The notes beneath the pieces were generated by a model. That model saw only the letters and a list, made by a program, of their open reading frames with translations. It was not told the origin of the DNA and made no database searches. This document shows, piece by piece, positions 35,449 to 61,531 of a stretch of 64,000 nucleotides of DNA. Both the position numbers and the translations under genes were made by a program. Every line of letters begins with the position of its first letter. Within the stretch, counting starts at the first letter, position 1. This DNA comes from an uncultured delta proteobacterium. GTDB taxonomy: Bacteria > Desulfobacterota > Syntrophobacteria > BM002. The stretch is from contig CAVQGX010000018.1 in the NCBI GenBank assembly GCA_963712115.1, positions 95,127 to 159,126 of the forward strand, written 5' to 3'.

Positions 35449-35463
35449 GATTGCATCCGTCCT

Positions 35464-37239: not shown

Positions 37240-37267
37240 GAGCTTATGGCACCTCCCTGTGATCTTT

Positions 37268-37304
37268 GCCTGCCCCGTTAAATCCTCATCTGTTTAACTG
37301 GGGT
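37268..37304. repeat. Short palindromic element
   Basis: gcctgccccgttaaa-tcctcatctg-tttaactggggt. Confidence 0.45.
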
Positions 37305-37410
37305 GCACTTTGTGGTGAAAACTAGCCATTAATATCCACTTAAACAGTAGGTTTTGCCGATAACTTAGTGGGCCTTTTGTATCGTTTATCACCTGATGAA
37401 GGGAATTTCT

Positions 37411-37424
37411 TTGACCTAAGTCAA
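37411..37424. promoter_or_regulatory. CRP/FNR-like palindrome upstream of the hdr genes
   Basis: TTGAC-CTAA-GTCAA. Confidence 0.4.
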
Positions 37425-37682
37425 CCAAGTTGTGCCCAGGGAGGAAATATCAAAGAAGAATGGTCAGCTTTAAAAGTGAAAATCATCTGCCTTAGCTAAG
37501 GCCATTAACAAGAAGAGCGATTAAGTTCGGGGCACGGCACAACTAAGAGGCCAAGTACAGAAGGAGTGTAACATAAATCCTAGTAAAAAACTGTATTTTA
37601 GATCAAAAGAACTTTCTAACTTTAAGGTTTCGATAATCCCAGAAATGTGTGGCGAGCTTGATGGCTGTCTAGCTGGCTGCTC

Positions 37683-38372
37683 TTACTCTCCATCCTCTCC
37701 GCTGCCCGCTTGTCCTGAGCGGAGTCGAAGGGCTGCAGGCTGCTCGCTGGATAGGGGTGCCCAATTCATATCCGGCCAGGTGATCTCACGGGCATTCTTA
37801 TAATAAGCCCCTTGCGCGCAAGGTCGACAGAGTTTCACCCCATTAACAACCACCTCACGATGGTCACGAACGATCTGGCCACAGCGGCTGCACGAAACCT
37901 TGCGCCGGGTTGGTCCAGGCAAATCAAACTCGCTCAACACCACCTCAACCTGCTGCACCCGAAACAGAACACTGTCCGGCATTCTTTTGTAGGCTTCAAG
38001 TTGCTGCTTATATTTCTCTGATATATCCGGTACATATTGACATGCCAGGTCACGGGCTTCCTCAGTAGAAATGACCCTGAAGGCTTTGTTGGTTTCAAGG
38101 TTTACAAAGGTTGCGGCCATGATACCGTAATCCACAAACTTTAGAGATCTTCGCCCCAACTTAGCGCCAGTGACGTGGGCAACCGCATCACCCGCACACC
38201 TGTCCATTTCCACATAGACAATAAGTTTTTTTATCTGGTCGTGACTGGTGGGATCATCTAGGCCGATGAGGCGACAACCCAAGATAGCCATGCGCACCCC
38301 TACTGCTTGTCCTGGACACAGATGACCATGTGCTGCGGCCGACGTAGCCAACAAATCTTCGAAAGGCTTCAT
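37683..38372 (-). CDS. FmdE/FwdE-family protein with C-terminal zinc finger
   Basis: HGHLCPG, EMDRC..DA, CSRCGQ..LCRPC. Confidence 0.88.
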   Translation of the reverse strand: MKPFEDLLATSAAAHGHLCPGQAVGVRMAILGCRLIGLDDPTSHDQIKKLIVYVEMDRCAGDAVAHVTGAKLGRRSLKFVDYGIMAATFVNLETNKAFRVISTEEARDLACQYVPDISEKYKQQLEAYKRMPDSVLFRVQQVEVVLSEFDLPGPTRRKVSCSRCGQIVRDHREVVVNGVKLCRPCAQGAYYKNAREITWPDMNWAPLSSEQPAALRLRSGQAGSGEDGE

Positions 38373-38543
38373 TGGCCTCTCCTGCTATAGAATTAATCAG
38401 GGCCACCTAAGTTAGGGGTATAGTTGCTCGCTGATTTATGCTGAAGTTAACATAAGAGACATTCAAAAAAAAAGAGGCATCTGGCCTCTTCGGTGAAAAT
38501 AGGCTGTTTGTTAAGGTCTCAATGTAGTTGATATTTCTAGTGG

Positions 38544-38696
38544 CTAGGTTTCTTTACATTCCACGCAGCGGCCAAATTCATCGACACAGTCACTGCAGTG
38601 AAGTCGATTACAAACCTTGCATTCGGTCATGACGGTGCTTGTATCGCCTTCGTAGCTTTCGTCACATGCCGCACAGACAAACTGGGGATCTGTCAT
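38544..38696 (-). CDS. 50-aa protein with four CxxC pairs
   Basis: AGGAG RBS before ATG 38696; CAAC, CKVC, CSDC, CVEC. Confidence 0.75.
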   Translation of the reverse strand: MTDPQFVCAACDESYEGDTSTVMTECKVCNRLHCSDCVDEFGRCVECKET

Positions 38697-38829
38697 TTTA
38701 AGACTCCTATGTTTAGCAGTCCAAAAACCCACCTGCTGCGCTGGTGGTATAGTTAAAATTTTCTTGTAAAAAGATAATTAAAGGTCTCCCATTTATTATG
38801 GTCAATCGTGAGAAACCGAAAAAAAGTCT

Positions 38830-38935
38830 TCCCCTCCCTTGGCGGGAGGGGATAGAGGGGAGGGGGAACAATAATTAGATGGTCTCATTTTATCTTTCAC
38901 CCCCACCTTAGTCCTCCCCCGTCAAGGGGGAGGAG
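38830..38935. repeat. REP-like palindrome pair
   Basis: ccctcccttggcgggaggg..ggggagggg and tcacccccacc..cctcccccgtcaagggggagg. Confidence 0.65.
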
Positions 38936-38979
38936 AATTGGGAAGGCTTTAGCACCGAGAAGAGTATCTTTCACTGAAT

Positions 38980-39045
38980 CGCCCCCTATGGGGGCGCCAC
39001 CCTTTCGGGTCGGCTCATTGACCAAAGCCCCCGGCTATGCCGGGC
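38980..39045. mobile_element. Triple hairpin resembling an IS200/IS605 end remnant
   Basis: cgccccc-tat-gggggcg, accc-tttc-gggt, aaagcccccggc-tat-gccggg; no tnpA nearby. Confidence 0.4.
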
Positions 39046-39248
39046 TAAACACAATTCTTGAACTTGACCCTGGAAAACTCTTCCCATTGATTCAGAAGGT
39101 CATGCCTGTTCGCCCACACGAAAATTTCGCCGCGGCTCTCAACCAATCTTTCAATCCAGTCACGAAATCTGACTAGCTGCATAGGCTTACCGGGGATGGT
39201 CTGCACCTCAAGTAGCTTCAAGGCTTCTTCCAAACTCAAGTGGGCCAA
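39045..39248 (-). CDS. Hypothetical 67-aa protein
   Basis: AAGGAAGGAG RBS before TTG, directly after the DUF1641 gene. Confidence 0.65.
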   Translation of the reverse strand: MAHLSLEEALKLLEVQTIPGKPMQLVRFRDWIERLVESRGEIFVWANRHDLLNQWEEFSRVKFKNCV

Positions 39249-39271
39249 CGGTGTCTCCTTCCTTCATATTC

Positions 39272-39988
39272 TCAAGCAGATGAGGGCTTTTCCTCTAACC
39301 CCTGGACAGGTGAAATTGCATGGTCCTCTGCCGGGGATCCGTTTTTGAGCAGGGACAGCCCTTTTGTGAGCTCCAGCAAAACGCCCATGCCCTGTTTGAC
39401 TTCCCTGTTGCCCAGGGCGAACACCATGCCGAAGGGGCCGACCTCTTTGGCTTGAGACAAATCCACGGTGACCGGGATTTCAGCGGCCCTGTGCAGGAGA
39501 TTCAATGCTTGTGGAGCAGTGAGTTTCTTTGCCACTCCCACAAGATCTACCAAGCCGTTTCCGATCTGATCAATGTCTCTGGGAGTGTACGTTTGGGCTA
39601 TTTTCTGTAAGACCCCAAGCATACTGGCCATAATCTGAAAAACACCCTGATGTTCGAGCATGTCAAGGTAGGCGATGGCCTGAGGCACAGAGGATTTTAG
39701 TAGAGGCTCCACCGTCCGCAGAAAATCAATAAGGTTCTTCAGTTGGTCAATGGACCAGTTCATATTTCTCACATTTCTCAAAACCTTTTTCATGAGAAAG
39801 GTCAAATCTTCCAGCTGAAAATCCGCCTCTATCTCCACCAGTCCGTTGATAAGGGCCTGGACAGTTTCGTTGACCCTGGGGGTGACATCCTCCCTCAGTT
39901 CCCTCAAGGACCTGGCAGCGTCGGTCAAGACAAAGATTTCCTTTTCCAAACTATCGAGTCGTTCCATTATGGCTTGTTCATTAGTCAT
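39272..39988 (-). CDS. DUF1641-type helical protein
   Basis: C-terminal VGPFGMVFALGNREVKQGMGVLLELTKGL; usual neighbour of SQR-like genes. Confidence 0.8.
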   Translation of the reverse strand: MTNEQAIMERLDSLEKEIFVLTDAARSLRELREDVTPRVNETVQALINGLVEIEADFQLEDLTFLMKKVLRNVRNMNWSIDQLKNLIDFLRTVEPLLKSSVPQAIAYLDMLEHQGVFQIMASMLGVLQKIAQTYTPRDIDQIGNGLVDLVGVAKKLTAPQALNLLHRAAEIPVTVDLSQAKEVGPFGMVFALGNREVKQGMGVLLELTKGLSLLKNGSPAEDHAISPVQGLEEKPSSA

Positions 39989-40003
39989 AACTTACCCTCC
40001 AGG

Positions 40004-41239
40004 CTATGCAGCCTGCCTGAGCTTGCCCGCCATGTTGAACTGGGATTCCAATGGCAGTTCAAGACCTTTCATTAAAAGGTTCCAGTACACCCACTTGAAC
40101 ATCATCTTCCCCCAATGGTTGCCGAAGGTCTCCTGCAGCAAGGTGAATGGCCCTAGCCCAGGAAAGGGAAATTTGCCAGGCAAGGGTTCCACCTCATAGT
40201 TGAAGTCGAGGAGAATGGCCTTCTCGAACCCAGAAGACAAAAAACAGGTTGCATGGCCGTCGAAAGTTGGCAGGGGCTCATGACCGTCTATCTCGCGAAC
40301 CAGGTTTTCCACAACGGTATAGGACATGTAATGAGCCACCGAGCCTGCCTTTGAGGTGGGCGCGTTGGTAGCATCTCCTAATACATAGACCCGATCAACA
40401 GTCTGAGCTTTCAGGGTGCGCTGGTCCACCTGCATATAGCCCATGGGATCTCCCATCCCGGAATCCGAAATGGCCTTGTCGCCAAAGTTGGGTGGTATGG
40501 CTACCAGAAGGTCGTATCCCACCTTGTCGCCTTTGTGGGACTCGATGGTCTTTTCATTTGGATTAACCCTGGCGAGATCGAAATAGGGGGTGACCTTGAT
40601 ATTTTTCTTTTTGGCAAAGCTAGCCAAAGCTTTTGCAGCCACCGGTTTAGTGAAGATGTTGTCGATAGGGGTTACGAATTCAATCTCCACCTTGTCCCTG
40701 ACACCGTTCACCTGAAAAAACCAGTCTGCCATGAAAACAAACTCTATGGGGGCGATGGGACATTTGTAAGGAAATTCGGCAATATTGAGGACGACCTTAC
40801 CGGAACTAAAGTACTTTAGCTTATTGCGTAAGGCCACCGCCCCATCTAGAGTGTAGAAGTCGAAGACGTCTTCGCGCCAAACATCCATCATTCCTTCCAC
40901 TTCCTGGGGGACAATCCTGCAGCCGCTGGCAATTACCAGGTAATCGTAGTCGTAGGTGTCTCCTTTCGCTGTCTCCAGATAGCGCTGGTTAGTGTCAATC
41001 TTGGTTACGTTGTCGACAACAAAATCAACCCCTTGAGGAATGAAGTCGCGCTTGGGCTTGAGCACGTCCTCACTGGAGTACAACCCGAAGGGTATGAAAA
41101 GATACCCCGACTGAAAGTGATGTTGCTCGTCCTTGTCAATCATGGTGATTTGCCAGTCGCTGTCTTTCAATTCATGCCGCAGGTTAGCGGCAACCATGGT
41201 GCCGCCGGCCCCTGCTCCTAAAATGACTATCTTTCTCAT
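40004..41239 (-). CDS. sqr: Sulfide:quinone oxidoreductase-like flavoprotein (type III-like)
   Basis: GAGAGG, YDYLVIASG, KCPIAP and HATCF cysteines, LGDA..PTSKAGSVAH; GGAGG RBS before ATG 41239. Confidence 0.82.
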   Translation of the reverse strand: MRKIVILGAGAGGTMVAANLRHELKDSDWQITMIDKDEQHHFQSGYLFIPFGLYSSEDVLKPKRDFIPQGVDFVVDNVTKIDTNQRYLETAKGDTYDYDYLVIASGCRIVPQEVEGMMDVWREDVFDFYTLDGAVALRNKLKYFSSGKVVLNIAEFPYKCPIAPIEFVFMADWFFQVNGVRDKVEIEFVTPIDNIFTKPVAAKALASFAKKKNIKVTPYFDLARVNPNEKTIESHKGDKVGYDLLVAIPPNFGDKAISDSGMGDPMGYMQVDQRTLKAQTVDRVYVLGDATNAPTSKAGSVAHYMSYTVVENLVREIDGHEPLPTFDGHATCFLSSGFEKAILLDFNYEVEPLPGKFPFPGLGPFTLLQETFGNHWGKMMFKWVYWNLLMKGLELPLESQFNMAGKLRQAA

Positions 41240-41312
41240 AACGATTGCCTCCATAAAGTGTGGGAATAGATTTTTTGCATAGCACCAAAAAACAAGGTTT
41301 ATCCGCAGAGTA

Positions 41313-41780
41313 TTAGTAGCTGCTTGCCCTTCGCAGATAGCGTGAAGTCCTTCCATGTGTACGCAGGAGAAAGCTATAGGTTGTTGTTAGTCTGCGGCCG
41401 ATAATTCCGGCCACCTGCTTGTAAAATGAAAGCCCGGAGGTCGGATATCTCCCGAATATTTCGAGTAGATCATTATTTCTAATTCTCTGCAATTTAGTTG
41501 GGGAGGAACAGACCGCCGTCGCCGTGTAAACGTGGTGGTCAACCAGGCTGGACCAGCCGAAAGCGTCCCCCGGATTTTTTACAACGTGAGTTACATAGCC
41601 GTCTTCTCCGATGCTCAACTCGACGCTTCCTTGTGTGAGGATGTAAAAATCGAGGGCAACTTCACCTTTCTCAAACAGGACAGTGCCCTCGTCGTAAGAC
41701 TCCTCCACCATAATTTCCTGGATTTCCTTGACGACTTGCCGATCCAGACCTTTTAAGAGATCAGCTTCTAGCATAACCAT
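41313..41780 (-). CDS. Stand-alone cyclic-nucleotide-binding domain protein
   Basis: LFEKGE, FYILTQGSV, PGDAFGWSSL, YTATA; no HTH; AAGGAGG RBS. Confidence 0.85.
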   Translation of the reverse strand: MVMLEADLLKGLDRQVVKEIQEIMVEESYDEGTVLFEKGEVALDFYILTQGSVELSIGEDGYVTHVVKNPGDAFGWSSLVDHHVYTATAVCSSPTKLQRIRNNDLLEIFGRYPTSGLSFYKQVAGIIGRRLTTTYSFLLRTHGRTSRYLRRASSY

Positions 41781-41941
41781 AAGAACCTCCTTAATTTGTG
41801 GATGCTGGTAATTGTAAATCCTTCGCGCCTTAATCACCTCAAGGTAATCCTGCCTGGAGACTGAAATGCAAACAACTAGTGAAAGCGGAATACCTCAAAG
41901 CTGTAGAAGCCGGATTGGTAGAGAAGGGTGCGCTCTCAGGG

Positions 41942-46853: not shown

Positions 46854-46981
46854 GGTGAAATAACCGGCCGCACTTGGTCATTTCACCAAATTATCATCAC
46901 CGCTCTAAGTTCCGATAAATAGCTAACATACTGTATTTAATAGTTTATCCAGCCGACAATTGCTGTGGCATGCATATTGAT
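46854..46981 (+). promoter_or_regulatory. Tandem UAS and variant sigma54 promoter of the cytochrome operon
   Basis: GGTGAAATAACCG-N7-TTGGTCATTTCACCAAAT; TGGCATGCATATTGAT at 46966-46981. Confidence 0.75.
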
Positions 46982-48356: not shown

Positions 48357-49127
48357 ATGATTAAAAAAAGATGGTTTTCTAAAAGCAAAATTGATGCAAA
48401 GTCTGATGGCCATAGATACTTCGTACGGTTAAATTTTAATGAAAGAGTTCAACACATGATCTTTCTCATCTGTTTTATTGTCTTGGCCATAACCGGATTT
48501 ATGTTAAAGCTTCCCGAAGATATAGTGCAAAAATTTGGCGATGCCAAGGATGTGGTGTTTTATTACCGAGGGATATTACATCGCATTGCCGGTACTACTA
48601 TGATTCTGGTCAGCCTATATCATGTTTTCTACCTTCTGTTCAAACAGGCAGGCCGTCGCTGGCTTGTAGACATGCTGCCCAAATTCAAAGATTTGACTGA
48701 CATGATTGGCACCATGCTCTATTATCTGCGAGTCAAAGAGGAGCATCCTGAGTACGACAGATTTTACTACAAGCAGAAACTGGAGTACGGTGCATTGATT
48801 GCCGGTGCTACCCTGATGTCAGTAACGGGCCTACTTCTTTGGACTGAAGAAATGTGGCCAAAATTTCTTCTGGATATTGCCGTCATTGTCCATGGCATGG
48901 AAGCAATCCTGGCCTGTTTGGCAATCATGGTATGGCACCTGTATGACGTTCATCTTAGGCCGCGTAAGTTTCCCATCGATAACCTGTGGCTTACCGGTTT
49001 GATAGAAGAAGAAGAGATGCGGGAAGAGTTTCCCTTGCATTATAAAAGGATCATGGAGGACCCTGAACTCCAGAAAGTTTACCTAGTCCCAGAGCATGAA
49101 GAAGGAGATGCATCTCTCAGTGTCTGA
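48357..49127 (+). CDS. FdnI/HyaC-type di-heme cytochrome b
   Basis: ERVQH..LAITG, ILHRIAG, QKLEY, VHGMEAILA..WHLY. Confidence 0.9.
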   Translation: MIKKRWFSKSKIDAKSDGHRYFVRLNFNERVQHMIFLICFIVLAITGFMLKLPEDIVQKFGDAKDVVFYYRGILHRIAGTTMILVSLYHVFYLLFKQAGRRWLVDMLPKFKDLTDMIGTMLYYLRVKEEHPEYDRFYYKQKLEYGALIAGATLMSVTGLLLWTEEMWPKFLLDIAVIVHGMEAILACLAIMVWHLYDVHLRPRKFPIDNLWLTGLIEEEEMREEFPLHYKRIMEDPELQKVYLVPEHEEGDASLSV

Positions 49128-51058: not shown

Positions 51059-52084
51059 TTGGTTAACCATAGAACTCCCCCTATGATTCTGGAAAATGTA
51101 TGTCGTTCTGTTAAGAAGCCTGCCATCATCGCATTAAGGCTATCAAGCAGTGCCTATCTCTTTACCTTTCTTCTAATCCCATGTGTTTTATTAACTTTTT
51201 TCGCTGTGCCCGCATTTGCCATAAGACTTGTTAATGTTAAGTTGCTTTTTGAATTAAGAGGAGAGTTCAATAAACCAACCGATGTATCGGTTTCCAAGAA
51301 CGGACTTATATACGTTGTCGACGGGGTAAATAATGCAATAAAGGTTTTTAATAGCAAGGGCAGATTCTTGTATTCTTTTGGCAAAAAGGGCTCCGGCCGG
51401 AGTGAATTCAGCTCACCACTGGGAATCGACATTGACAATGAAGGCCGGCTATATATAGCCGACTCTGGAAACCAAAGGGTGCAGATACTTGACAGCAAGG
51501 GAAGTTTTATAACAGAGATAAAACTCCCTCCCGACAATGACCAACTCGCCGATCCCACAGATGTTGCAGTCGATGATTTAAACAACAAATGTTACATAGT
51601 TGATAACGACAACCACCAAGTCCTGGCGTACGACCTTTCCAAGCTGAAACTGATAAAGACCTGCGGCAGTTATGGTGCCGGCACAGACCGGTTCAGGTAT
51701 CCTTTTTTTGCAGCCCTGGGTAAGGTGCAAAACCTCTACGTGGTTGATGTGATTAATACAAGGGTGCAAGTGCTGAACTCCGAAGGTTCGTTCATTGCTG
51801 AGATCGGCGGGTGGGGAGTTGAAAAAGGAAAGTTTTTCCGGCCCAAAGGGGTGGCCGTTGATAAAAGTAACCGGGTTTATGTGAGTGACAGCTATATGGG
51901 AGTGATCCAGGTCTTTGAATCAACTGGAGAGTTTTACGCTGCCCTGGGCGACCCTTCCACTGGTAAGGTCAAGAAGTTCAGGACCCCTATGGGACTATTC
52001 ATAGACCATGAAAACAGGCTTTATGTTGTTGAAACCCTGGCCAACAAGGTGAGCGTATTTCAATTTGCAGGTGTCACTGAATGA
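51059..52084 (+). CDS. Exported NHL-repeat beta-propeller
   Basis: F..P.GI..D..G.LYIADSGN.RVQ repeats; start uncertain. Confidence 0.9.
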   Translation: MVNHRTPPMILENVCRSVKKPAIIALRLSSSAYLFTFLLIPCVLLTFFAVPAFAIRLVNVKLLFELRGEFNKPTDVSVSKNGLIYVVDGVNNAIKVFNSKGRFLYSFGKKGSGRSEFSSPLGIDIDNEGRLYIADSGNQRVQILDSKGSFITEIKLPPDNDQLADPTDVAVDDLNNKCYIVDNDNHQVLAYDLSKLKLIKTCGSYGAGTDRFRYPFFAALGKVQNLYVVDVINTRVQVLNSEGSFIAEIGGWGVEKGKFFRPKGVAVDKSNRVYVSDSYMGVIQVFESTGEFYAALGDPSTGKVKKFRTPMGLFIDHENRLYVVETLANKVSVFQFAGVTE

Positions 52085-52128
52085 ACTTCAGCAGCCTGGT
52101 AGACACCTAGCGAATCTAATAAAAGACA

Positions 52129-54602
52129 GTGAAGAAAATAATATACACACATACCTTCCTTATTTTCCTCCTCTCCCTGGCCTTCAGCACTCAGGCACTC
52201 GGCCAGGACCAGAGTAACCCCAATTCAGCCAAGGCATGCGCCATATGTCACTACCGCTGGATAGAAACCTTCTTCGTTGAAGGCAGGGGTACGGACCTGG
52301 TGGAATATCAGGGGGAAAAAGTGGTGGCAACACCTGAAATGTGTTTTTCCTGTCACGACGGTAGTATCAGGGATTCCAGAGCAAAGTTAGACGAAAATAC
52401 CGGACACAAGACCAATAAAGAGCCGCCCCGGCAGATGAAGATACCCGAGATATTTCCCCTGGATGAAAATGGCAGAGTGCAATGTTCTACCTGTCATACC
52501 GCCCATGGAGTGCAAGGCGGCCCTCACAGCGGAGAAACAATTTTTATGAGAACCTCCAACAAGAATTCTGCCATGTGCCGCATGTGCCACCCAGCCGCAG
52601 ATGGGGGAATGGCGGCCGGCAATCACCCGGCAGGAATCATGCAGAAAGAGGTCCCCGCAAAGCTTGTTTCCCTAGGTGCTGTTACGGGTGGAAAAAGTAA
52701 CCAGATTATTTGCGAGACCTGCCATGTAGCCCACGGATCACCATATGAGAGCTTTTTGATCGCAGGTGCTGGTGACTCTGCCCTCTGCCTCGTCTGCCAT
52801 GAGGACAAAAACATTTTCGAGCCTGAAGGGACAAGGAAGCCCTTTCACGTTATAAATGTCCCTCCACAAAAGGCAAAAATACCTGCAGCCCTCATCCAAA
52901 AAGGGGCGAAAACAGGTTACCAGGGTTCTATAACCTGCCTGACCTGTCACAAGGTACACGGTAACAAAACCCAAGAACAATTCCTGTTAATCATGAGGAA
53001 TGAAGAACCCTCTTTATGCCTTACCTGTCATTTGGACAAAGAGTATCTTGTTGAGTTCAAAGCATAACCTTATGCATTCCGCCCCGGGGGAGAGAAATCT
53101 GCAAGGCAAAACAGCGGCAGAGGGAGGGATATGTTCACCATGCCACCTGCCGCATAAACCAGCAAGAAACCTAGGCGGAAAAGAAGACTTTACCACTCGG
53201 CTGTGTCTCAGTTGCCATAGCAAAGGAAATATCGGCGAGAAGGTTATTCCCCGAGGATATTCTCATCCATTGAATGTGGGTCCATTTGAAAAGAAAGAAG
53301 AAAATCCTTTTGTTACCGCTGTGGATGCCGAAAAAGGCAAATTAGCCCTGCCACTTTTCAATAGATATAATGTGCAAGATGAAAATGGCAAATTAACCTG
53401 TTCAACCTGCCACGAACCTCATGGACTGCCGGCGAATGCAACAAGAGGACAGAGAGCAAAGGATGGTGAGGGGCCTCAAAGCCAAATCTCTTCTTAGAAA
53501 ACAGTCACCAGATATCTGCCGCCAATGCCATAATAATAAATTTGATCTTGTCAATTCCAAACATGACCTAAGTAAATTGCCTGCCGAAGAGACAGATATG
53601 TTGAAAAGCAGAGGGGCCGGAGCCTGGGATTTGCGGGAATTGCCATCTGGTGCACGGTCAAGAGAAAGGTTACTTGTGGACAAGGGCAGACTCAGCCACA
53701 GGTAGCGAAAATAGGGCAGAAGAGATGTGCACGGGATGCCACAATGAAAGAGGGTTGGCCAGCAAGAAGGTTGTAAAAGGCTACTCTCACCCTGTAAATA
53801 TTTCGCCTTCTGAAAAAGGACTCACCACTACCCTGCCACTCTATAACAGCAAATGGAAAAACCTCTAAGGACGGAGTGCTGACCTGTCAAACTTGCCATG
53901 ATCCCCATCGGTGGGATCCCCTGAGGGCTTCGCAGGGAGACCATCTCGACATTGAGGCGGACTCGCAGAATAGATTCCTCAGATTAGAAAATTCACCATC
54001 ACCCACTCTTTGTGAAAACTGTCATCCAAACAAGGCCAGAGTAGAAAAGACTGATCACGACCTCATCATAACTGCTCCTGCCCACAGGAACACTATGGGT
54101 CAAACTCCGGCACAGTCTGGAACCTGCGGCGTGTGTCATCTCGTCCATAACAGTAAACACAAGATCAAGACTGTGGGCCCAGGAGTTTGGCCTGGGTACA
54201 GACGTGATGGCAAGGATGTGTAACTCCTGCCATTCGGAAAGCGGTATTGCCAAGAACAAAGTTCCTCCAATCGGTGATCATCCGCAAGATAAGCTTGTTA
54301 ATCTTTCCGGGAAGATTAAAAGCAGAGAGAACTTTCTGCCACTTTTTGACCCCATGTCAGGTGATCCGGTAATTGCGGGCAATATCTCCTGTGCATCCTG
54401 CCACAATGTTCACCAGTGGGACCCGAAACGGACTACTAAAGGTGAAGGTGTAAATCTTGAAGGGAATGCGACCAACAGTTTTCTCAGAATAGATTCCCCT
54501 GATCTTATGTGTAAGGACTGCCATGGTTTCCAGGCATTGTTGAAGTTCAAATTCTTCCATGATCCTGTTAGACGCAAAATGCAAGGCTTTACTCTTCCAT
54601 GA
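52129..54602 (+). CDS. Large multiheme cytochrome c, 20 CxxCH across six frame segments (five apparent frameshifts)
   Basis: 8+3+1+2+3+3 CxxCH counted; doubled CxxCH..H..LCxxCH pattern; signal peptide. Confidence 0.85.
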
Positions 54603-54830
54603 TTTAGAACCTTTCGGCTTACCTTTAAAATCCCTCCCCATCGATGGATCAGAGTTGTATGGCCTTGCCAGCCGAAGAGGTCTAAGGTTTAAGGCATAAG
54701 GCGAAAGGAGAGGATAAGTTTTATTTGATTGTTTTTGCCTTGTGCCTTGTGCCCTGCTGCCTTGAGCCATGCCCTCTGGTTTCAGCTAGAAGCCAGATCT
54801 TGTGGGCCTGAATTCTCTACTTAGGTACCT

Positions 54831-54957
54831 GGTGAGATCACCGTATAGGCCTGGGGATTTCACCAAATATCCACTAAAACAAACGACACTAATATTATCT
54901 AAACATTTGATGTTATTGATTAATTAAGACATCAACCCTTCTGGCACGCATATTGAT
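54831..54957 (+). promoter_or_regulatory. Tandem UAS and variant sigma54 promoter of hemA
   Basis: GGTGAGATCACCG-N7-CTGGGGATTTCACCAAAT; TGGCACGCATATTGAT at 54942-54957. Confidence 0.78.
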
Positions 54958-54996: not shown

Positions 54997-56319
54997 ATGA
55001 TGGAACGTATTGTTCTTATAGGATTGAATCATAAAACTGCCCCGGTTGAGATCCGGGAAAAATTCGCCTCCGTTTGTCTGGACGGCACCAGCCCACTTGA
55101 GCAAATAGAGAAGCTTCCGCAGGTAAAGGAGGCTTTTTTTATCTCCACCTGCAACCGCATGGAAGTCCTGTTCACCACCTCAGCCCTTGATCAGGGAATG
55201 GGCCAGGTAGTGCGCCACTTGGCGGAGATTTATGGTAAAACCGGTGCTGCGCTGAAGCCTTATCTTTATATTCACCTGGACCATGAAGCGGTAAAACACC
55301 TCTTTAGGGTGACATGCAGCCTGGATTCCATGGTGGTGGGAGAGGCTCAGATACTCGGCCAGATCAAAAACGCCTACAGGGATGCGGTTGAGGCCAAGAC
55401 CTCGGGGGTGATTCTAAATCGGCTGCTGCACAGAGCCTTTTCAGTGGCAAAGCGAGTGCGCACGGAGACGCAAATTGGCAGCAGTGCGGTCTCCATAAGC
55501 TATGCTGCGGTGCAACTTGCCAAGAAGATATTCCAAGATCTGCAGGGCAAGAAGGCTATGCTGGTGGGGGCGGGCGAGATGGCTGAACTGGCTGCCGAGC
55601 ATCTCTTGGGCCAAGGGGTGGATGAGATTGTTGTGGCCAATCGTACTCTGGACCGGGCTCTGGGGCTGGCCAGAAGGTTTAAGGGAACCACCATACCTCT
55701 GGAAGAGCTGGCCCAGGAGTTGAATCGGGTGGACATCATCATCAGCTCCACAGGTTCTCCGGAACCAGTAATCAGTGCTCAGCAGGTGAGGACACAGATG
55801 AGAGCCCGCCGAAATCGGCCGCTCTTTTTCATTGATATCGCGGTACCAAGGGATATTGATCCGGAGGTTAATCGGATCGACAACGTCTATCTTTACAACA
55901 TAGACGATCTCCAAAATATTGTGGAGATCAATCGCACCAAGCGACTAAATGAGGCGACGCGAGCCGAGCATATAATTGAAGCTGAGGCCTTAAAATTTGA
56001 GGGCTGGCTGCGCACCCTGGAAGTTGTTCCCACCATAGTCTCTCTTCGTCGAAAGGCTGAGGAAATCCGTCAGACAGAGATTCTCAGGACCTACGGTCAA
56101 TTCCACTCTCTTCCTGAAGAGCAAATGGAAGCCATTGAAGTTCTCACCCGATCGATCGTCAATAAACTGCTCCATGACCCCATCCTGTTTCTCAAACGCA
56201 CCAGCGCTAGGGACAAGAAGGATTTTTACCTAGACATCACCCACAGACTTTTCGACCTGGATGAAGAGCAAGTGGAGATGGTTGACGGCGAAGCCCAGCT
56301 ATCTGTCGGCTCCCGCTAA
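54997..56319 (+). CDS. hemA: Glutamyl-tRNA reductase
   Basis: GLNHKTAPVEIREK, STCNR, SLDSMVVGEAQILGQ, GAGEM, DIAVPRD. Confidence 0.97.
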   Translation: MMERIVLIGLNHKTAPVEIREKFASVCLDGTSPLEQIEKLPQVKEAFFISTCNRMEVLFTTSALDQGMGQVVRHLAEIYGKTGAALKPYLYIHLDHEAVKHLFRVTCSLDSMVVGEAQILGQIKNAYRDAVEAKTSGVILNRLLHRAFSVAKRVRTETQIGSSAVSISYAAVQLAKKIFQDLQGKKAMLVGAGEMAELAAEHLLGQGVDEIVVANRTLDRALGLARRFKGTTIPLEELAQELNRVDIIISSTGSPEPVISAQQVRTQMRARRNRPLFFIDIAVPRDIDPEVNRIDNVYLYNIDDLQNIVEINRTKRLNEATRAEHIIEAEALKFEGWLRTLEVVPTIVSLRRKAEEIRQTEILRTYGQFHSLPEEQMEAIEVLTRSIVNKLLHDPILFLKRTSARDKKDFYLDITHRLFDLDEEQVEMVDGEAQLSVGSR

Positions 56320-56429
56320 TCGGTCACGGTCCGGCTCTGTTTGTAGTCGGTTTGGCAGTGACGCTTTCCGTCCCAAATCCACCGTCTAATTTAGCTATCA
56401 GGACTGAAAGCAGCTGCTCATGGAGTATT

Positions 56430-56557
56430 CCTGATCACCAGCAAGGTATTAGATGCAAGGCGCCGAGGAGCGACGACTGAGGCGTATGGGGCAATACGCC
56501 GCAAGGAGAAGCGATCGAAGGCAACGCGCGCAGATGATGCCTTGCTGGTGGATCAGG
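56430..56557. mobile_element. MITE/REP-like element, family C
   Basis: TIR CCTGATCACCAGCAAGG/CCTTGCTGGTGGATCAGG with central ggcgtat..atacgcc hairpin; single copy here. Confidence 0.6.
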
Positions 56558-56624
56558 GCCGTGCTCCCCCATAGCCTTTGCGGGCAGGAAATGATATGCT
56601 TACAGGGCTAGGGGACTTCACGTG

Positions 56625-56808
56625 TAGCCCGGATGTTTCATGAATCGCTTACTACGACCACGGATATGGGCGTCCTTCCGTGTGTCCTCGGGTTTCGGCC
56701 CCTGCGACGTACCATTCAGGTACGCCTCGGGCCCAACACCCTGTGGTTGCCCGGTGGCACGCCCATCTTCGCGGTCTCGCGACACCAATTCATGAGACAT
56801 CCGGGCCA
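56625..56808 (-). mobile_element. MITE family A, copy 4
   Basis: TAGCCCGGATGTTTCATGAAT..ATTCATGAGACATCCGGGC; reverse-complement match to 9979-10171. Confidence 0.8.
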
Positions 56809-56961
56809 GAGCTTCAAATCTTCATCGTTGTCGGTTGAATCTTTCAGGTCTGGATACTCTTAATCAACCGGCAGGTCGAGATTTTTATTCATAAGGCTCA
56901 GCAAAAATGTGATGACCCCTTGATCACACTCGAAGGCAAAAAACAAGGGATCATTACCGCG

Positions 56962-57885
56962 ATGAGCAGATTACTCATCTCAATTTGTCTGTGCCTGACC
57001 ATCTTAATAGGTTGCAGTGAGACGAAGAGAGAGGATAACCCAGCAACCGATACACAGACAGCAGAGGCGAGACCATCCATTACCATTGGGCTTATTCCCG
57101 AACGCAACATTTTTACGCAACTTGACCGTTATGAACCTCTTGCTGACTATCTTTCAAAAAGAATAGGAGCGGATATAAAGTTAAAGGTTCTCACCCGCTA
57201 TGGGAATATCGTTGACAATTTCGTCTCAGCCGGGTTGGATGGCGCCTTCTTTGGCAGTTTCACCTATACCGTGGCCCATGTAAAGTTAGGGGTTGACCCC
57301 ATTGCAAGGCCGGAGACCGTTGACGGTATATCCACATACTACGGTCTGATTATGGTGAGAAAAGACGGGGGCATCAAGACTGCTCAAGATATGAAGGGAA
57401 AAATTTTTGCCTTTGTGGACAGGGCAACCACAGCCGGTTATCTCCTCCCTCTGGCATACTTCAAAGAAAACGGCATAGATGATTACCAGACATTTCTGCG
57501 AGAAACTTATTTTGCCGGTACCCACGAGGCTGCGATTTACGACCTGCTAAACAAGAAGGCCGACATCTGCGCGGCAAAAGATACTGTGTTTACCATGCTT
57601 GCTGCCAGAGATAAAAGGCTCACCAAGGAGTTGCTTCTCCTGGCAAGATCACCCGACGTGCCAGAGAACGGTTTGGCCTTAAGAAAAAATTTTGATAGCA
57701 CTATCAAAAATGAGCTGAAAAAAGCACTGCTCAGTATGGACAAGGACCCGGAAGGTATAAATGTATTGAAAAAGTTTGGCGCAAGAAAATTCATCGAGAC
57801 TACAAATGACGACTACGCCAGCGTGTACAAATATGTAAGACAAATCGGACTTAATCTTTCCACCTATAATTACCGGAATGAATAA
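56962..57885 (+). CDS. PhnD-like oxyanion-binding lipoprotein
   Basis: Lipobox LIGC; IGLIPE, PLADYLS, FAFVDRATTAGYLLP; no ABC permease or ATPase adjacent. Confidence 0.85.
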   Translation: MSRLLISICLCLTILIGCSETKREDNPATDTQTAEARPSITIGLIPERNIFTQLDRYEPLADYLSKRIGADIKLKVLTRYGNIVDNFVSAGLDGAFFGSFTYTVAHVKLGVDPIARPETVDGISTYYGLIMVRKDGGIKTAQDMKGKIFAFVDRATTAGYLLPLAYFKENGIDDYQTFLRETYFAGTHEAAIYDLLNKKADICAAKDTVFTMLAARDKRLTKELLLLARSPDVPENGLALRKNFDSTIKNELKKALLSMDKDPEGINVLKKFGARKFIETTNDDYASVYKYVRQIGLNLSTYNYRNE

Positions 57886-60134
57886 TGAAGAAATTAATAA
57901 TCACAGTTATAATTATTTTTTGTCTGATTAACACCCTGGTCGGTGCCTATGTCATTATCAGCATGGAAGATGCAACCTCAAAGCTGAATTATGTAATATC
58001 ACTTCATCAAATTGAACTTCTTAGAGAACATTTGTTGATCTATTTAAAAAAGGTACAGTCTGACCTGAGCCTTAAGAACACAAGTCATGAAAGAAGTATT
58101 GATACGATTGTTCAAAATGTTAGATATCTAGATAATATGATGGGAAGATGCATGGCCTGTCATCAGTCGCCCCAGATGTTGAAGGGAGATAATGCAGCGT
58201 CCAGACATTATGTGCTCAGCAGACTCTACGGTTTGCGAAATAATGTCGATGAATACAAAGAATCATTGAGCAGGTTTTTGACCATGAGAGCTGGTCGCAA
58301 CAGGACGGCAATAGAATTCGACAAGGCCTTCCACACAGCGGAACAGCTAGTAACAGAAGTCAATACAATGGTGCACGCCACAAGTGCTAAGCTGGCCGAG
58401 AGAACTCAATCGTCTTACAGAGATATCTCTAAGACAAAAAACCTGCTTTACGGGCTAGTGGTGCTGGGTCCCATAGTTGCTGCTGTGGTGGGGTTCATTT
58501 TTATAAGGAAACTTACTGGACCGGTTAACACCCTCCTGCAGGCAACGCGAAAAGTAAGGGGCGGGGATTTGGATTACAAGATAGGAGGATTAAAGGCTGA
58601 GTTTGGGGAAGTGGCGGCTTCCTTTAACGAGATGTCAGATTCGCTAAAAGAGCATATGCTTAGGATAAGAGAAAGCGAGAACCGTTATCGAACTTTGTTC
58701 GAAAGTGCAGGGGACGCCATTTTCATTGTGGAAGCCGAGGGAGATGAACCAGGGAGGATTGTGGACGCCAATCCGGCGGCAGCAGAGATGCACGGATATA
58801 CTCTCGAGGAGTTACTTGAGCTCAACCTGGTAAAAGATCTTGATGCTCCTGATGCCGCAAAAGATGCGCCGGGCCGTATCGAGCGTATTTTGCAGGGAGA
58901 GTGGATCCAGGCAGAAATCAACCATGTCAAGAAAGACGGCACGGTATTTCCGGTTGAAATAAGTGCGGGATTGTTTGAGTACATGGACCATCAATATATC
59001 CTGGCGGTGGACAGAGATATTTCAGACCGGAAAAAGATGGAGAATCTGATTCTCCAGGCCAAGCTAGAATGGGAAGATACCTTTGATACCATCACTGATA
59101 TGATCACAATCCATGATGCCGATTTTAATATTATAAGGGCCAACAAGGCTGCACAGGAAATCCTGGGACTTCCTTCCTTAGAAGTCACCAAGGCAGTAAA
59201 ATGCTATTCCTACTACCATGGAAAAGATTCACCCCCAAGTGACTGTCTGAGTTGTACTTGCCTGGAGACAGGGCAATCCACCTCATTTGAAATGTTCGAA
59301 CCCCATCTAAACAAATACCTTGAAATAAGAGCATTGCCTCGTTATGACGAAAATAATGAGATAGTTGGGTTAATCCATGTGATCAGGGACATTACTGAGC
59401 GCAAGAAGGTAGAGGAGGCATTGCAAAGGGCAGAGCAGATGAAAATGGTGGGCGAATGGGCCACAGGACTGGTTCATGAAATCAAAAACCCACTCGCGGG
59501 CATCAAGGGCTCAGTGGAAGTGCTGGCTAGTGACGCTAACATGGCTGAGGAAGACAGGGGTATTGTAACTCAAGCAGTAGATGAAATTAAACGAATCGAA
59601 TTGTTACTAAAGAGCCTTCTCAATTTCGCCAAACCGCCCAAACCCCAACTAACGTTGGTGGACATTAATGACATCCTCGATAAGTCCATTGCCTTTGCCC
59701 TGAGGCATCCGTCACTGGTGGCAAATAGCTCAACGGCAATAAATGTTTTCAAGGATTTTGATCCAAATATTCCTAAAGCCATGGCTGATCCCATGCAGAT
59801 GCAACAGGTATTTTTAAACCTTCTGCTCAATGCAATTGAAGCCATGCCGGATGGCGGCATGCTGGCTACAAAAACTTCCTATGATGCAAAGCTTAATTCC
59901 ATCCAGATTACCATCTCCGACACTGGAAATGGCATGGACAAAAGCTTGGTTAACAAGGTTTTCCAGCCATTCTTTACCACCAAACGAAAAGGTTCCGGCT
60001 TGGGATTGTCCATCACCAGAAGACTAATCGAACAGCACGGTGGCCATATCGATTTGGAGAGCGACCCAGGAAAGGGAACTGTGTTTAACATCTTTCTCAA
60101 TGCGAACCACAAGAGAAAGGATCAGAGTTCATGA
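57885..60134 (+). CDS. Sensor histidine kinase: periplasmic CxxCH domain, HAMP, two PAS
   Basis: TM1, CMACH, TM2, HAMP, PAS, Cys-rich PAS, HEIKNPL, FFTTK..GSGLGL. Confidence 0.92.
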   Translation: MKKLIITVIIIFCLINTLVGAYVIISMEDATSKLNYVISLHQIELLREHLLIYLKKVQSDLSLKNTSHERSIDTIVQNVRYLDNMMGRCMACHQSPQMLKGDNAASRHYVLSRLYGLRNNVDEYKESLSRFLTMRAGRNRTAIEFDKAFHTAEQLVTEVNTMVHATSAKLAERTQSSYRDISKTKNLLYGLVVLGPIVAAVVGFIFIRKLTGPVNTLLQATRKVRGGDLDYKIGGLKAEFGEVAASFNEMSDSLKEHMLRIRESENRYRTLFESAGDAIFIVEAEGDEPGRIVDANPAAAEMHGYTLEELLELNLVKDLDAPDAAKDAPGRIERILQGEWIQAEINHVKKDGTVFPVEISAGLFEYMDHQYILAVDRDISDRKKMENLILQAKLEWEDTFDTITDMITIHDADFNIIRANKAAQEILGLPSLEVTKAVKCYSYYHGKDSPPSDCLSCTCLETGQSTSFEMFEPHLNKYLEIRALPRYDENNEIVGLIHVIRDITERKKVEEALQRAEQMKMVGEWATGLVHEIKNPLAGIKGSVEVLASDANMAEEDRGIVTQAVDEIKRIELLLKSLLNFAKPPKPQLTLVDINDILDKSIAFALRHPSLVANSSTAINVFKDFDPNIPKAMADPMQMQQVFLNLLLNAIEAMPDGGMLATKTSYDAKLNSIQITISDTGNGMDKSLVNKVFQPFFTTKRKGSGLGLSITRRLIEQHGGHIDLESDPGKGTVFNIFLNANHKRKDQSS

Positions 60135-61531
60135 AAAGAAAGGGAAAGGTGTTTCTTTTGGATGACGATGGACTCATTGTCTCGGTGCTCTCCCGGGCCT
60201 TGAAGAAAGAAGGTTATGAAGTATACGAAGAGACAGAAACAGATGATGCGATCAACAAAATCAAGTCGTGGGACCCAGATCTATTATTGCTGGATATCTC
60301 GATGCCAGGCCGAGACGGCATAGATATACTTAAGGAGATTAGAGGCGAGGAGATACAAACCCAGGTGGTGATGTTAACAGCCGATGATACTGCCGAGACC
60401 GCGGTTAAGGCTATGAAACTCGGCGCTGTGGATTATTTGACCAAGCCCTTTAATACAGACGAAGTAAAGATAGTTCTAAGTAGCATTATAGAAAAGGAAA
60501 ACCTCAAAAAGGAAGTGAAATACCTCAGGAAAGCCTATTCTGAGGTATTCGACAGAGAGCTGGTGGGGGAATCAAGGGCAATAAAAGAACTGAAAAAGAA
60601 AGTTGAAAAGATAGCCCTAGCTGGGGTGTCAACTGTGCTGCTAACAGGAGAAAGTGGCACAGGCAAAGAGGTCGTAGCAAGGCAAATACACAGGTTAATG
60701 TTCGGCACAGATGATTCGTGGCGGGCGCCCTTTGTTTCAATAAACTGTGCTGCCATGCCGGAGACCCTTCTGGAAAGTGAACTCTTTGGCCACGAGAAGG
60801 GCTCATTCACAGATGCAAAGTCTGAGAAAGTGGGGCTTTTCGAGGATGCAAGGGGAGGTTCAATACTTCTGGATGAGATTGGTGACATGAAACCTGACCT
60901 CCAAAGTAAGTTGTTGAGAGTTTTGGAAGAAAGGACAATTAGAAGGGTTGGAGGAAAATCGGAGATACCTATAGATGTCACTGTCTTAGCCACAAGTAAC
61001 AGAAACCTCTCACAGGCAGTGGAAAAGGGTGATTTCAGGAGAGACCTATTTTTCAGACTGAGTACCTTTTACCTCCACATAGTGCCACTAAGAGAGAGAC
61101 AAGAAGACATACCACTCCTCGCCGAACACTTCCTCTCGCACTTTGCCGCCAAGTACAACAAGCCCATGATAAGAGGTTTTTCCCCTGAAGCAGAGAAAGT
61201 CTTGGTTAATTCGAACTGGCCAGGTAACGTAAGAGAGTTAAAGAACTTGGTGGAGAGGATTGTTGTACTCGAAAATGTTGAAGAGATACTTCCCGAACAT
61301 ATTCCATCCTGGATATCCCGGTCGACCATGAGGGCAGAGCAATCTTCAAACGGCAGATTTGTCCTGCCCGACTCAGGTATATCTCTAGATGAACTAGAAA
61401 AAGACCTGATCCTGCAGGCACTGGAAAAGGCGGATCATAACAAGACCCAGGCAGCCAAACTCCTCAATATCAGCTACGACAGTCTGAGATATCAATTGAA
61501 GAAATTCGGGATTTCGGGATACAGTAGTTGA
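60131..61531 (+). CDS. NtrC-family sigma54 response regulator
   Basis: REC, GESGTGKE, GSFTDA, WPGNVREL, HTH; ATGA overlap with the kinase. Confidence 0.93.
   Translation: MKRKGKVFLLDDDGLIVSVLSRALKKEGYEVYEETETDDAINKIKSWDPDLLLLDISMPGRDGIDILKEIRGEEIQTQVVMLTADDTAETAVKAMKLGAVDYLTKPFNTDEVKIVLSSIIEKENLKKEVKYLRKAYSEVFDRELVGESRAIKELKKKVEKIALAGVSTVLLTGESGTGKEVVARQIHRLMFGTDDSWRAPFVSINCAAMPETLLESELFGHEKGSFTDAKSEKVGLFEDARGGSILLDEIGDMKPDLQSKLLRVLEERTIRRVGGKSEIPIDVTVLATSNRNLSQAVEKGDFRRDLFFRLSTFYLHIVPLRERQEDIPLLAEHFLSHFAAKYNKPMIRGFSPEAEKVLVNSNWPGNVRELKNLVERIVVLENVEEILPEHIPSWISRSTMRAEQSSNGRFVLPDSGISLDELEKDLILQALEKADHNKTQAAKLLNISYDSLRYQLKKFGISGYSS

Follow-up and report, generated by a model that had tools for sequence, protein, structure and literature searches.

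A conserved gene triad encoding a PhnD-like lipoprotein, a CxxCH-bearing histidine kinase and a sigma-54 regulator beside multiheme cytochrome genes in uncultured bacteria

AioXSR and ArxXSR combine a PF12974 sensing protein, a histidine kinase and a sigma-54 regulator of the AtoC/NtrC type that acts on a respiratory enzyme operon, as set out in passages of PMC5908839 and PMC8050422. In Geobacter, BccR (GSU0598) activates cbcBA from a sigma-54 promoter as the redox potential falls (passages of bioRxiv 10.1101/2021.04.15.440034), and the adjoining gene, GSU0599, encodes a two-component protein with two heme-c motifs (passages of PMC8396549 and PMC3831638). Regulation of extracellular electron transfer is known from few cultured models only, BccR in Geobacter being one. 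Here we describe a gene triad in a 64,000-nucleotide stretch of DNA from an uncultured delta proteobacterium (contig CAVQGX010000018.1, positions 95,127 to 159,126; hereafter the window). Its members, all on the plus strand, encode a PhnD-like lipoprotein, a histidine kinase with a candidate heme-c motif in its outer domain, and a sigma-54 response regulator.

As the full best explanation, with a probability of roughly 0.7, we propose that the triad is a three-component signalling unit controlling an extracellular or periplasmic electron-transfer regulon. Viewed in this way, the triad joins two-component sensing aided by a binding protein to a heme sensor in the periplasm. In a search of the full-text literature, with subscription journals and supplements outside its scope, neither this triad nor a kinase sensor built as a heme-c four-helix bundle was found described.

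The triad and its conservation

The three genes are linked by overlapping stop and start codons, with a TAATG junction at 57883-57887 (1 nucleotide (nt) in common) between binding protein and kinase and an ATGA junction at 60131-60134 (4 nt in common) between kinase and regulator. The open reading frame of the binding protein spans 56920..57885 from a TTG; the likely start is the ATG at 56962, giving 307 amino acids (aa), and the N terminus, MSRLLISICLCLTILIGC/S, is a lipobox (…LIGC/S), the signal of a lipoprotein. Its sole Pfam match is PF12974 Phosphonate-bd (6.7e-58, 196 bits). The kinase comprises HAMP (residues 206-256), PAS (266-381), PAS_4 (400-507), HisKA (523-583) and HATPase_c (635-739). 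Between its two hydrophobic helices lie about 160 residues (27-190) that match no Pfam family at E ≤0.01 and hold the sequence CMACH at residues 89-93; a second cysteine motif, CYSYYHGKDSPPSDCLSCTC, stands at residues 440-459 in the second PAS domain. In the regulator we find REC (7-113), Sigma54_activat (144-315), AAA_lid_14 and HTH_8 (419-459), together with a GAFTGA-type sigma-54 contact loop that reads GSFTDA directly from the translation. The features tested for an NtrC-type sigma-54 activator (REC, AAA+, HTH_8 and loop) are thus all present, and the genome carries rpoN in two full-length matches, C17:13958-15355 (474 bits) and C58:2541-3938 (444 bits), which could be a duplication or a binning artefact. 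An earlier note on this DNA, made from the letters alone, had pointed to the overlapping codons, to both cysteine motifs and to a unit of binding protein, kinase and sigma-54 activator, and each of these is borne out by the junctions, the domains and the gene order that relatives keep.

The CxxCH motif defines a family. A word-indexed search with kinase residues 1-260 returned 303 proteins at E ≤0.001 among 2739 candidates; in the query and the 120 homologues listed, the motif is present in 121/121 and stands at position 89 in 118. Searched exhaustively with a profile, 1.84 billion cluster representatives gave 353 at E ≤0.001, 283 at ≤1e-10 and 160 at ≤1e-30, with the sensor domain N-terminal in every match. 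One of the 150 listed was left out as shorter than 110 aa, and CxxCH falls within the first 140 residues in 148 of the other 149, the exception resembling a frame-shifted fragment. Aligning the window protein with 126 representatives of at least 215 aa, we observed that C89, C92 and H93 are invariant (127/127 rows), that R47 is kept in 98%, H41 in 117/127 and M162 in 89/127, and that position 94, a Gln in the window kinase, is His in 96%. What follows the sensor differs across the family: HisKA/HATPase may come directly (~482-485 aa proteins), or after one or two PAS domains. Two members, P0106 and P0129, are one-component variants in which the heme-motif sensor and HAMP lead straight into a sigma-54 AAA+/helix-turn-helix (HTH) module within one protein; their HTH, ISRSTLYGK, differs in type.

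Gene order is kept along with the motif. In a pattern scan of one genome per species we found 173 sensor relatives and kept the best 80 loci, which by their titles come throughout from metagenome-assembled genomes (MAGs) or uncultured-genome records. They are labelled Deltaproteobacteria, Desulfobacterales, Syntrophobacterales/Syntrophales, Nitrospirota/Thermodesulfovibrionia, Dissulfurispiraceae, Deferrimicrobia and Acidobacteriota, with one Chloroflexota and one Gemmatimonadota. In 70 of the 80 there is a binding-protein homologue (46-83% identity) whose end coincides with the kinase start or lies no more than a few tens of bases from it; in one further locus (L067) the upstream DNA is too short to judge. 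A regulator orthologue of at least 57% identity lies downstream in 59/80 (one partial), the remaining 21 being an unsorted mix of contig ends and true absences. In the 48 loci with three complete genes, compared with the window, the regulator has a median identity of 63.1%, the binding protein one of 58.9% and the sensor domain one of 41.5%, and in 45 of these loci the binding protein is better conserved than the sensor domain. Judged from its sequences, with CxxCH and gene order kept across relatives, the triad is conserved and genuine beyond chance.

Binding protein and kinase also occur together. Among 401 genomes spread evenly over the window's phylum, the sensor is present in 25, the window's own included. 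Clade-level binding-protein matches (≥335 bits) were observed in 23 genomes, all 23 of them sensor-positive and with coordinates that abut the sensor; in the 376 sensor-negative genomes the best match reaches 276 bits and none is clade-level. Second-tier relatives of the binding protein (195-276 bits) precede or are fused to histidine kinases in 6/6 sampled cases, and none of these six kinases carries CxxCH. Kinase-linked PhnD-like proteins appear to be a wider theme. Side cases include L091 and L092, where PBP_like_2 and Phosphonate-bd make up double binding proteins of ~565 aa that show translational coupling to HAMP histidine kinases (one with a PilZ tail), and L094 and L096, where the order is REC-HD regulator, PhnD-like protein, kinase. 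An open frame of >771 aa with a weak PF12974 match (26.1 bits) on the genome's own contig C69 (L002 1-2313, minus strand) may encode a kinase to which a PhnD-like domain is fused.

We observed no transporter gene adjoining the binding-protein gene within the window. The genome itself (4.9 Mb, 94.4% complete, estimated contamination 6%) has one PF12974 match above the cut-off of 27 bits, two others scoring 26.1 and 24.6, and its 12 matches to PhnE (TIGR01097) all fall below the cut-off, the best at 51 bits versus 216.7; PhnC was not searched. The protein passes the TIGR01098 subfamily model (159 bits versus a cut-off of 112) and falls below the PhnD equivalog TIGR03431 (162 versus 261). Public records label its relatives 'phosphonate ABC transporter substrate-binding protein', and a plasmid search returned 1049 records, all of <60% identity (best 32%) and all transporter-type phnD. 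These results, with the strict linkage to the kinase, uphold the claim of a PhnD-like protein that has no transporter; a binding protein dedicated to the kinase and not to a transporter is supported at the level of sequence.

Binding-protein pocket and kinase sensor domain

We aligned 59 family members with Escherichia coli PhnD, checking the mature numbering against residues given in a passage of PMC5908839. The residues that hold the oxyanion are kept: PhnD Tyr47, Tyr93, Ser127, Thr128 and His157 correspond to window Tyr80 (58/59), Tyr126 (59/59), Thr156 (56/59), Thr157 (55/59) and His188 (57/59). Elsewhere in the pocket Ser129 becomes Ala158 (58/59) and Asn175 becomes Lys206 (59/59), and the acids that bind the amine in PhnD, Glu177 and Asp205, are swapped for the neutral Thr208 (57/59) and Asn236 (56/59). 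In AioX, as the same passage describes, Cys106 bonds arsenite and the pocket further includes Tyr88, Tyr131, Ser161, Ser163, His192 and Asp210. Set against that pocket, Tyr80, Tyr126 and His188 are kept, Thr156 takes the place of Ser161, Ala158 that of Ser163 and Lys206 that of Asp210 (PhnD Asn175). The position of Cys106 (PhnD Gly65) is Gly98 in 59/59, and because it is Gly throughout, an AioX-type arsenite receptor is excluded.

By sequence the protein is nearest to PtxB/PhnD (111 bits), then to AioX (63) and ArrX (46), and its best matches in the PDB are 5jvb (4.6e-31) and 5o2j (8.8e-31) at ~30% identity. This partly realizes the outcome that the earlier note had held would count against its proposal, a grouping with transport PhnD: the protein is indeed nearer to PtxB/PhnD than to AioX, yet it forms a kinase-linked clade of its own. 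Its fold model (mean predicted local distance difference test (pLDDT) 88.4) ties with PtxB, AioX, ArrX, PhnD, HtxB, XAC2383 and GpxB alike. According to their PDB titles, solved PF12974 relatives bind phosphite, methylphosphonate, arsenite, arsenate, ATP (XAC2383) and glycerol-1-phosphate (GpxB), and they include a sterol transporter protein.

The most economical guess from these residues is that the ligand would be a small anion, maybe with extra negative charge. It is possible, though we give it distinctly less weight, that the binding protein is no oxyanion receptor and instead takes an organic phosphate, a nucleotide-like or some other ligand, or acts as a ligand-independent structural partner. 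The great diversity of ligands among solved relatives would suit such a role, as would a pocket altered by the invariant Lys206 and by Thr208 and Asn236 in place of the amine-binding acids of PhnD, whereas the near-complete retention of the oxyanion-holding half, from Tyr80 to His188, argues against it.

The kinase sensor domain was modeled with AlphaFold2 (21-row alignment) as an up-down four-helix bundle with helices 2-62, 72-93, 104-133 and 138-204 (mean pLDDT 82.5, predicted template modelling score 0.60). By our own reading of helix register, for which no coordinates were inspected, H41, H93 and M162 would lie at about equal height above the membrane. In sequence searches of the PDB the domain has no significant match (one at E 1.8), and Foldseek returned nothing from the PDB at E ≤0.001 for the model. 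The matches from an all-against-all structural search were generic helical bundles throughout, in which the sensor domains tie with designed proteins; the neighbours include LytS-N/XylFII (5xsd), QseE with the lipoprotein QseG (9m08), Vc1313, MCP2201, Adeh_2942, NarQ and PcaY. Cytochrome c' and b562 are absent from the 50 structural matches listed, though such kinship may exist all the same. Protein-language-model neighbours are unnamed clusters and TarH, 4HB_MCP and CHASE3 sensors. A 4HB_MCP/TarH-like bundle between two transmembrane helices fits the model; there is no Pfam match to that effect, and the Z values tie with designed bundles. The motif is invariant and periplasmic, and the candidate CxxCH site would carry a covalent c-type heme.

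A heme in this position could also serve as a sensor of gases or small molecules (nitric oxide (NO), O2, sulfide or CO), in which case binding of a ligand to the iron, and not electron exchange, would switch the kinase. Periplasmic c-heme Cache sensor domains that bind NO have reportedly been found and offer a precedent, and the variability of the candidate distal ligands (H41 in 117 and M162 in 89 of the 127 rows) would suit a displaceable ligand. The genes in the candidate regulon described below encode respiratory cytochromes and heme synthesis, not detoxification, and the Geobacter analogue, in the passages cited above, responds to falling redox potential; we therefore regard a gas sensor as unlikely.

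The second PAS domain may provide a further site. Its C-x4-H-x8-C-x2-C-x-C motif occurs in 56 of the 121 homologues, which the analysis gives as equivalent to 49 of the 64 long forms, and the other long-form kinases keep C-x11-C-x2-C. The cysteines sit where PAS domains hold cofactors. Searched against the PDB, this domain matched a generic PAS domain alone (3lyx, 3.3e-4), with no match to an NreB-type Fe-S PAS. NreB is reportedly a PAS-type Fe-S sensor and is invoked here as an analogy only; by that analogy a metal or Fe-S site in the second PAS is possible.

Candidate operator, promoters and neighbouring genes

Two nearly identical 16-mers of the sigma-54 type, TGGCATGCATATTGAT and TGGCACGCATATTGAT, stand ahead of a cytochrome operon (47168) and of hemA (54997), respectively, and each is preceded by a palindrome (Table 1). 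The two sites have GGTGA(A/G)AT(A/C)ACC-N10-GG(T/G)NATTTCACC in common, and the 34-bp consensus, GGTGAAATNACC-N10-GGTNATTTCACC, lies ~85 nt upstream of the promoters. Within the whole genome there are three palindromes with ≤2 mismatches, the two in the window and one on contig C38, and all three have a TGGCAY-N5-TTGAT promoter at 110-112 nt start-to-start (on C38, TGGCATATATATTGAT at 110 nt). The C38 operon (L090 880-8525) encodes a 983-aa dCache/sigma-54 activator, a receiver, a 352-aa multiheme cytochrome, a Fer4_11 4Fe-4S protein and an NrfD-like membrane protein; its site suggests a regulatory cascade and a quinol-oxidising complex within the same regulon.

The palindrome recurs beside the triad in other phyla. 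Scanning 81 sources (the 80 loci and the window segment) and allowing ≤5 mismatches over 22 specified positions, we found 38 sites in 31 sources, compared with 0-1 per shuffle in five shuffles. Its usual place is between a divergent stand-alone receiver gene and genes for multiheme cytochromes, NHL or propeller proteins, and in these related loci canonical TGGCAY-N5-TTGCW promoters flank it on one or both sides. The stand-alone receiver gene (a 38-member cluster in 36 loci, among them L015, L023, L030, L037 and L042) is convergent to the regulator and divergent from the cytochromes; in the window none follows the triad, and the C38 operon contains one.

The recognition helix of the regulator, the second HTH helix, reads …SYDSLRYQ… and is conserved in orthologues. 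A subclade (L018, L019, L021, L035, L076) has …YDAFRSH… in its place, and an altered palindrome, GGTNAWATGACC-N10-GGTCATTTARCT, is found in L019, L021 and L035, as well as in L027, where the regulator lies outside the locus. This covariation points to the triad regulator as the protein that would bind the palindrome. The site could instead belong to another enhancer-binding protein, such as the dCache activator, with the triad regulating elsewhere, for example the TPR gene downstream of it; one genomic site does precede the gene of that activator, which may be autoregulated. We hold this to be improbable, since the HTH of the dCache activator, ISRTALYDKLKRY, differs from that of the triad regulator, ISYDSLRYQLKKF, the palindrome accompanies the triad in other phyla, where clustering found a second regulator-like activator in L030 only, helix and motif change together in one subclade, and no palindrome stands ahead of the TPR gene.

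The palindrome and promoter pairs at the cytochrome operon, hemA and the C38 operon, and their recurrence beside the triad, support the idea that the triad switches on a cytochrome/hemA regulon. This link, first proposed from the letters of the window, is well supported by the sequence comparisons. Because hemA and then the triad follow the second promoter in the window's clade, positive autoregulation by read-through is possible.

Table 1. Positions of the triad, the candidate regulatory sites and neighbouring features in the window
Feature	Position	Strand	Remarks
Putative upstream activator site 1	46854..46887 (C18:141980)	.	Palindrome GGTGAAATAACC-N10-GGTCATTTCACC; 0 mismatches to consensus
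Sigma-54-type promoter TGGCATGCATATTGAT	46966..46981	+	112 nt from start of site 1
Multiheme c cytochrome, 392 aa	47168..48346	+	6 CxxCH and 1 longer motif
b-type cytochrome	48357..49127	+	PF01292; CbcA/CbcB-like pair with preceding gene
Two paralogous multiheme cytochromes, 276 and 312 aa	49176..51044	+	
NHL-repeat beta-propeller protein	51059..52084	+	Same cluster in 11 loci
Large multiheme cytochrome	52123..54608	+	Collinear with 842-aa 20-heme orthologue (L011); six frame segments, five frame changes
Putative upstream activator site 2	54831..54864 (C18:149957)	.	GGTGAGATCACC-N10-GGGGATTTCACC; 2 mismatches
Sigma-54-type promoter TGGCACGCATATTGAT	54942..54957	+	111 nt from start of site 2
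hemA, glutamyl-tRNA reductase	54997..56319	+	TIGR01035, 483 bits
Two dispersed inverted-repeat elements	56370-56561, 56622-56807	.	Between hemA and binding-protein gene
PhnD-like periplasmic lipoprotein	56962..57885	+	PF12974 match; without transporter; proposed co-sensor
Histidine kinase, 749 aa	57885..60134	+	Transmembrane helix, CMACH (89-93) in predicted four-helix-bundle sensor, transmembrane helix, HAMP, PAS, Cys-rich PAS, HisKA, HATPase
NtrC-type response regulator, 466 aa	60131..61531	+	REC, sigma-54 AAA+, HTH_8

The annotated neighbours between 34.6 and 63.4 kb include cytochromes, the NHL protein, hemA and a TPR protein, and no Pfam molybdopterin family is present among them. The three intact window cytochromes gave no match to OmcS at E ≤1 in a PDB search by sequence only. 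In contigs from other public runs the large cytochrome gene is one base shorter at 53050/53051, 53851 and 54166/54169, three of its frame-change sites; because those runs lack these bases, the breaks are assembly errors or strain-specific. The two inverted-repeat elements have 25 and 178 BLAST matches across the genome and are skipped in contigs of related strains (56369 to 56562/56565, and 56621 to 56808), and they look like small mobile insertions. An Rfam scan of the window returned no family at its gathering score. A minus-strand redox cluster at 34639-41837, unrelated to the triad, encodes a CCG-domain protein, a NarI-like/4Fe-4S protein, FmdE with a zinc finger, DUF1641, a flavoprotein like that of flavocytochrome-c sulfide dehydrogenase and a cNMP-binding protein.

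Proposed mechanism and comparison with known systems

In the mechanism we favour, the bundle of the kinase would carry one covalent c-type heme attached at Cys89 and Cys92, with His93 as the proximal ligand and the conserved His41 of helix 1 as the likely distal one, so that bis-His (H93/H41) ligation is the most likely arrangement. The redox or ligation state of the heme would alter the bundle and, through HAMP, kinase activity. The PhnD-like lipoprotein, whose genetic coupling to the kinase is observed directly, would dock on the bundle as a second input, with a small anion in the pocket formed by Tyr80, Tyr126, Thr156-Thr157, His188 and Lys206; in long-form kinases the Cys-rich PAS may, more speculatively, add a third, metal or Fe-S, input. 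Because nine loci have the kinase without a binding protein, we take the heme domain to be the core sensor and the lipoprotein to be an added input. The phosphorylated regulator would bind GGTGAAATNACC-N10-GGTNATTTCACC and activate the sigma-54 promoters downstream of it, and its targets would be the CbcAB-like b/c pair, further multiheme cytochromes, the NHL propeller, hemA and the remote cytochrome/FeS/NrfD complex.

Near-identical DNA occurs in marine-sediment, estuary and sediment metagenomes from 10 studies. Contigs from two sediment metatranscriptomic libraries cover the junction of binding protein and kinase (57085-57934), further pieces of the kinase, the regulator and several cytochromes, and the parts of the window without such cover are not read as silent.

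Several points weigh against this reading. That heme is attached, that a ligand is bound, that the lipoprotein docks and that the regulator binds DNA are predictions throughout. The ligand cannot be named from sequence, because the folds tie and the ligands of solved relatives are so diverse. The heme kinase stands without a binding protein in 9 of the 79 assessable loci, so the partner is not obligatory; for two of these (L040 and L058) the MAG holds another copy that has one. A sampled genome of the same genus lacks the sensor. The window promoters carry TTGAT at −12, where TTGC is usual; matches to the plain sigma-54 pattern are no more numerous in the window than expected (32 versus 36), and at ≤5 mismatches the genome has 7 palindromes versus 4, 3 and 0 in shuffles, little above chance, so that the three with ≤2 mismatches alone stand out. 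The covariation of helix and motif is confined to a single clade and therefore counts as one event. The RNA-library contigs are 92-99% alike to the window and thus come partly from relatives, and RNA libraries can hold DNA, their contigs giving no transcript ends or levels. In the closest named relative, L008 (CP070689.1; 8001-10030), the sensor is 89% alike and the kinase is shortened to 676 aa; in the second PAS segment the match covers just the first 41 residues, downstream there is no match to the regulator, and the system may be disrupted there.

Very improbable, finally, is that the PhnD-like protein serves ordinary transport, with its transporter encoded in sequence missing from the assembly and its place beside the kinase incidental: it passes TIGR01098, bears a transporter name in public records and comes from a genome that is 94.4% complete, yet no PhnE reaches its cut-off, the protein scores too low for the PhnD equivalog, its occurrence is strictly tied to that of the heme kinase, which it adjoins, and the second-tier relatives sampled are kinase-linked in 6/6 cases.

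A three-component unit of this kind would have consequences beyond the window. The sensor-regulator cassette is conserved, and the DNA motif that comes with it can be read and flags operons for cytochromes, NHL proteins and hemA in several phyla of uncultured sediment bacteria. The outer domain, with 353 cluster representatives in the 1.84 billion proteins searched, is a candidate for a new sensor domain that binds heme, and the binding-protein clade, named for phosphonate transport although wired to signalling, is mis-annotated. Knowing the ligand and the potential of the heme would reveal the environmental cue that switches the respiratory cytochromes on. More tentatively, heme-c bundle sensors with a private PhnD-like lipoprotein might act as a master switch, a two-input gate, for the cytochromes of extracellular electron transfer in uncultured lineages of the sediment and subsurface (MAGs labelled Desulfobacterota, Nitrospirota and Acidobacteriota), the heme reading the redox poise of the pool of periplasmic cytochromes and the lipoprotein reporting an anion linked to the electron acceptor. 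Should this doubtful extension prove true, the ligand would name what the cytochromes respire, and the 34-bp palindrome would let the regulon be read from any metagenome.

Compared with described systems, the triad shares with AioXSR/ArxXSR a binding protein used for sensing, a kinase, a sigma-54 regulator and respiratory targets, and with AioX (PDB 6ESK/6EU7/6ESV) a common fold (6esv, E 5.9e-25). It differs from AioX in Gly at the position of Cys106 (59/59), Lys at that of Asp210 (59/59) and Ala at that of Ser163 (58/59). AioS is sCache-like according to a passage of PMC8050422, in contrast to the predicted CxxCH four-helix bundle here, and the targets are cytochromes and hemA instead of a molybdoenzyme. 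The analogy to AioXSR drawn in the earlier note consequently holds for the architecture and fails for the arsenite pocket, the type of sensor and the target enzymes; the likeness to TtrS that it also drew is not supported, the NF040750 model scoring 19.5 bits versus a cut-off of 750 over ~70 residues only.

With PtxB, PhnD and HtxB the binding protein shares the Tyr/Tyr/Thr/His oxyanion cradle and its best PDB sequence matches. Unlike them it is without a transporter, linked to a kinase and below the PhnD equivalog cut-off, and Lys206, Thr208 and Asn236 replace the Asn175, Glu177 and Asp205 of PhnD. The logic of a periplasmic partner is found in LytS-XylFII (5XSD; Z 14.1, root-mean-square deviation 2.6 over 117 residues) and that of a lipoprotein on a kinase sensor in QseE-QseG (9M08; Z 11.2), both of which have a bundle fold. 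Designed helical bundles reach equal Z values, so what is common extends no further than the general fold; both pairs lack a heme motif, and no sequence similarity to the triad sensor was found.

The Geobacter c-heme sensors of the GSU0582/GSU0935 type are PAS-like, whereas the sensor described here, which also has CxxCH, is modeled as an all-helical four-helix bundle. The same contrast applies to GSU0599, whose sensor is cited, in the passages at hand, among PAS-like heme sensors with two heme motifs; those passages on BccR/GSU0599 mention no binding-protein partner. The likeness to GSU0598-GSU0599 is one of description. In both systems, as far as the cited passages go, a REC/sigma-54/HTH regulator adjoins a kinase with periplasmic c-heme motifs. 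As cbcBA has a receiver and a pair of b-type and multiheme c cytochromes, so the window operon opens with a 392-aa multiheme cytochrome and a PF01292 cytochrome b. By analogy, then, the triad functionally most resembles BccR and the heme kinase GSU0599.

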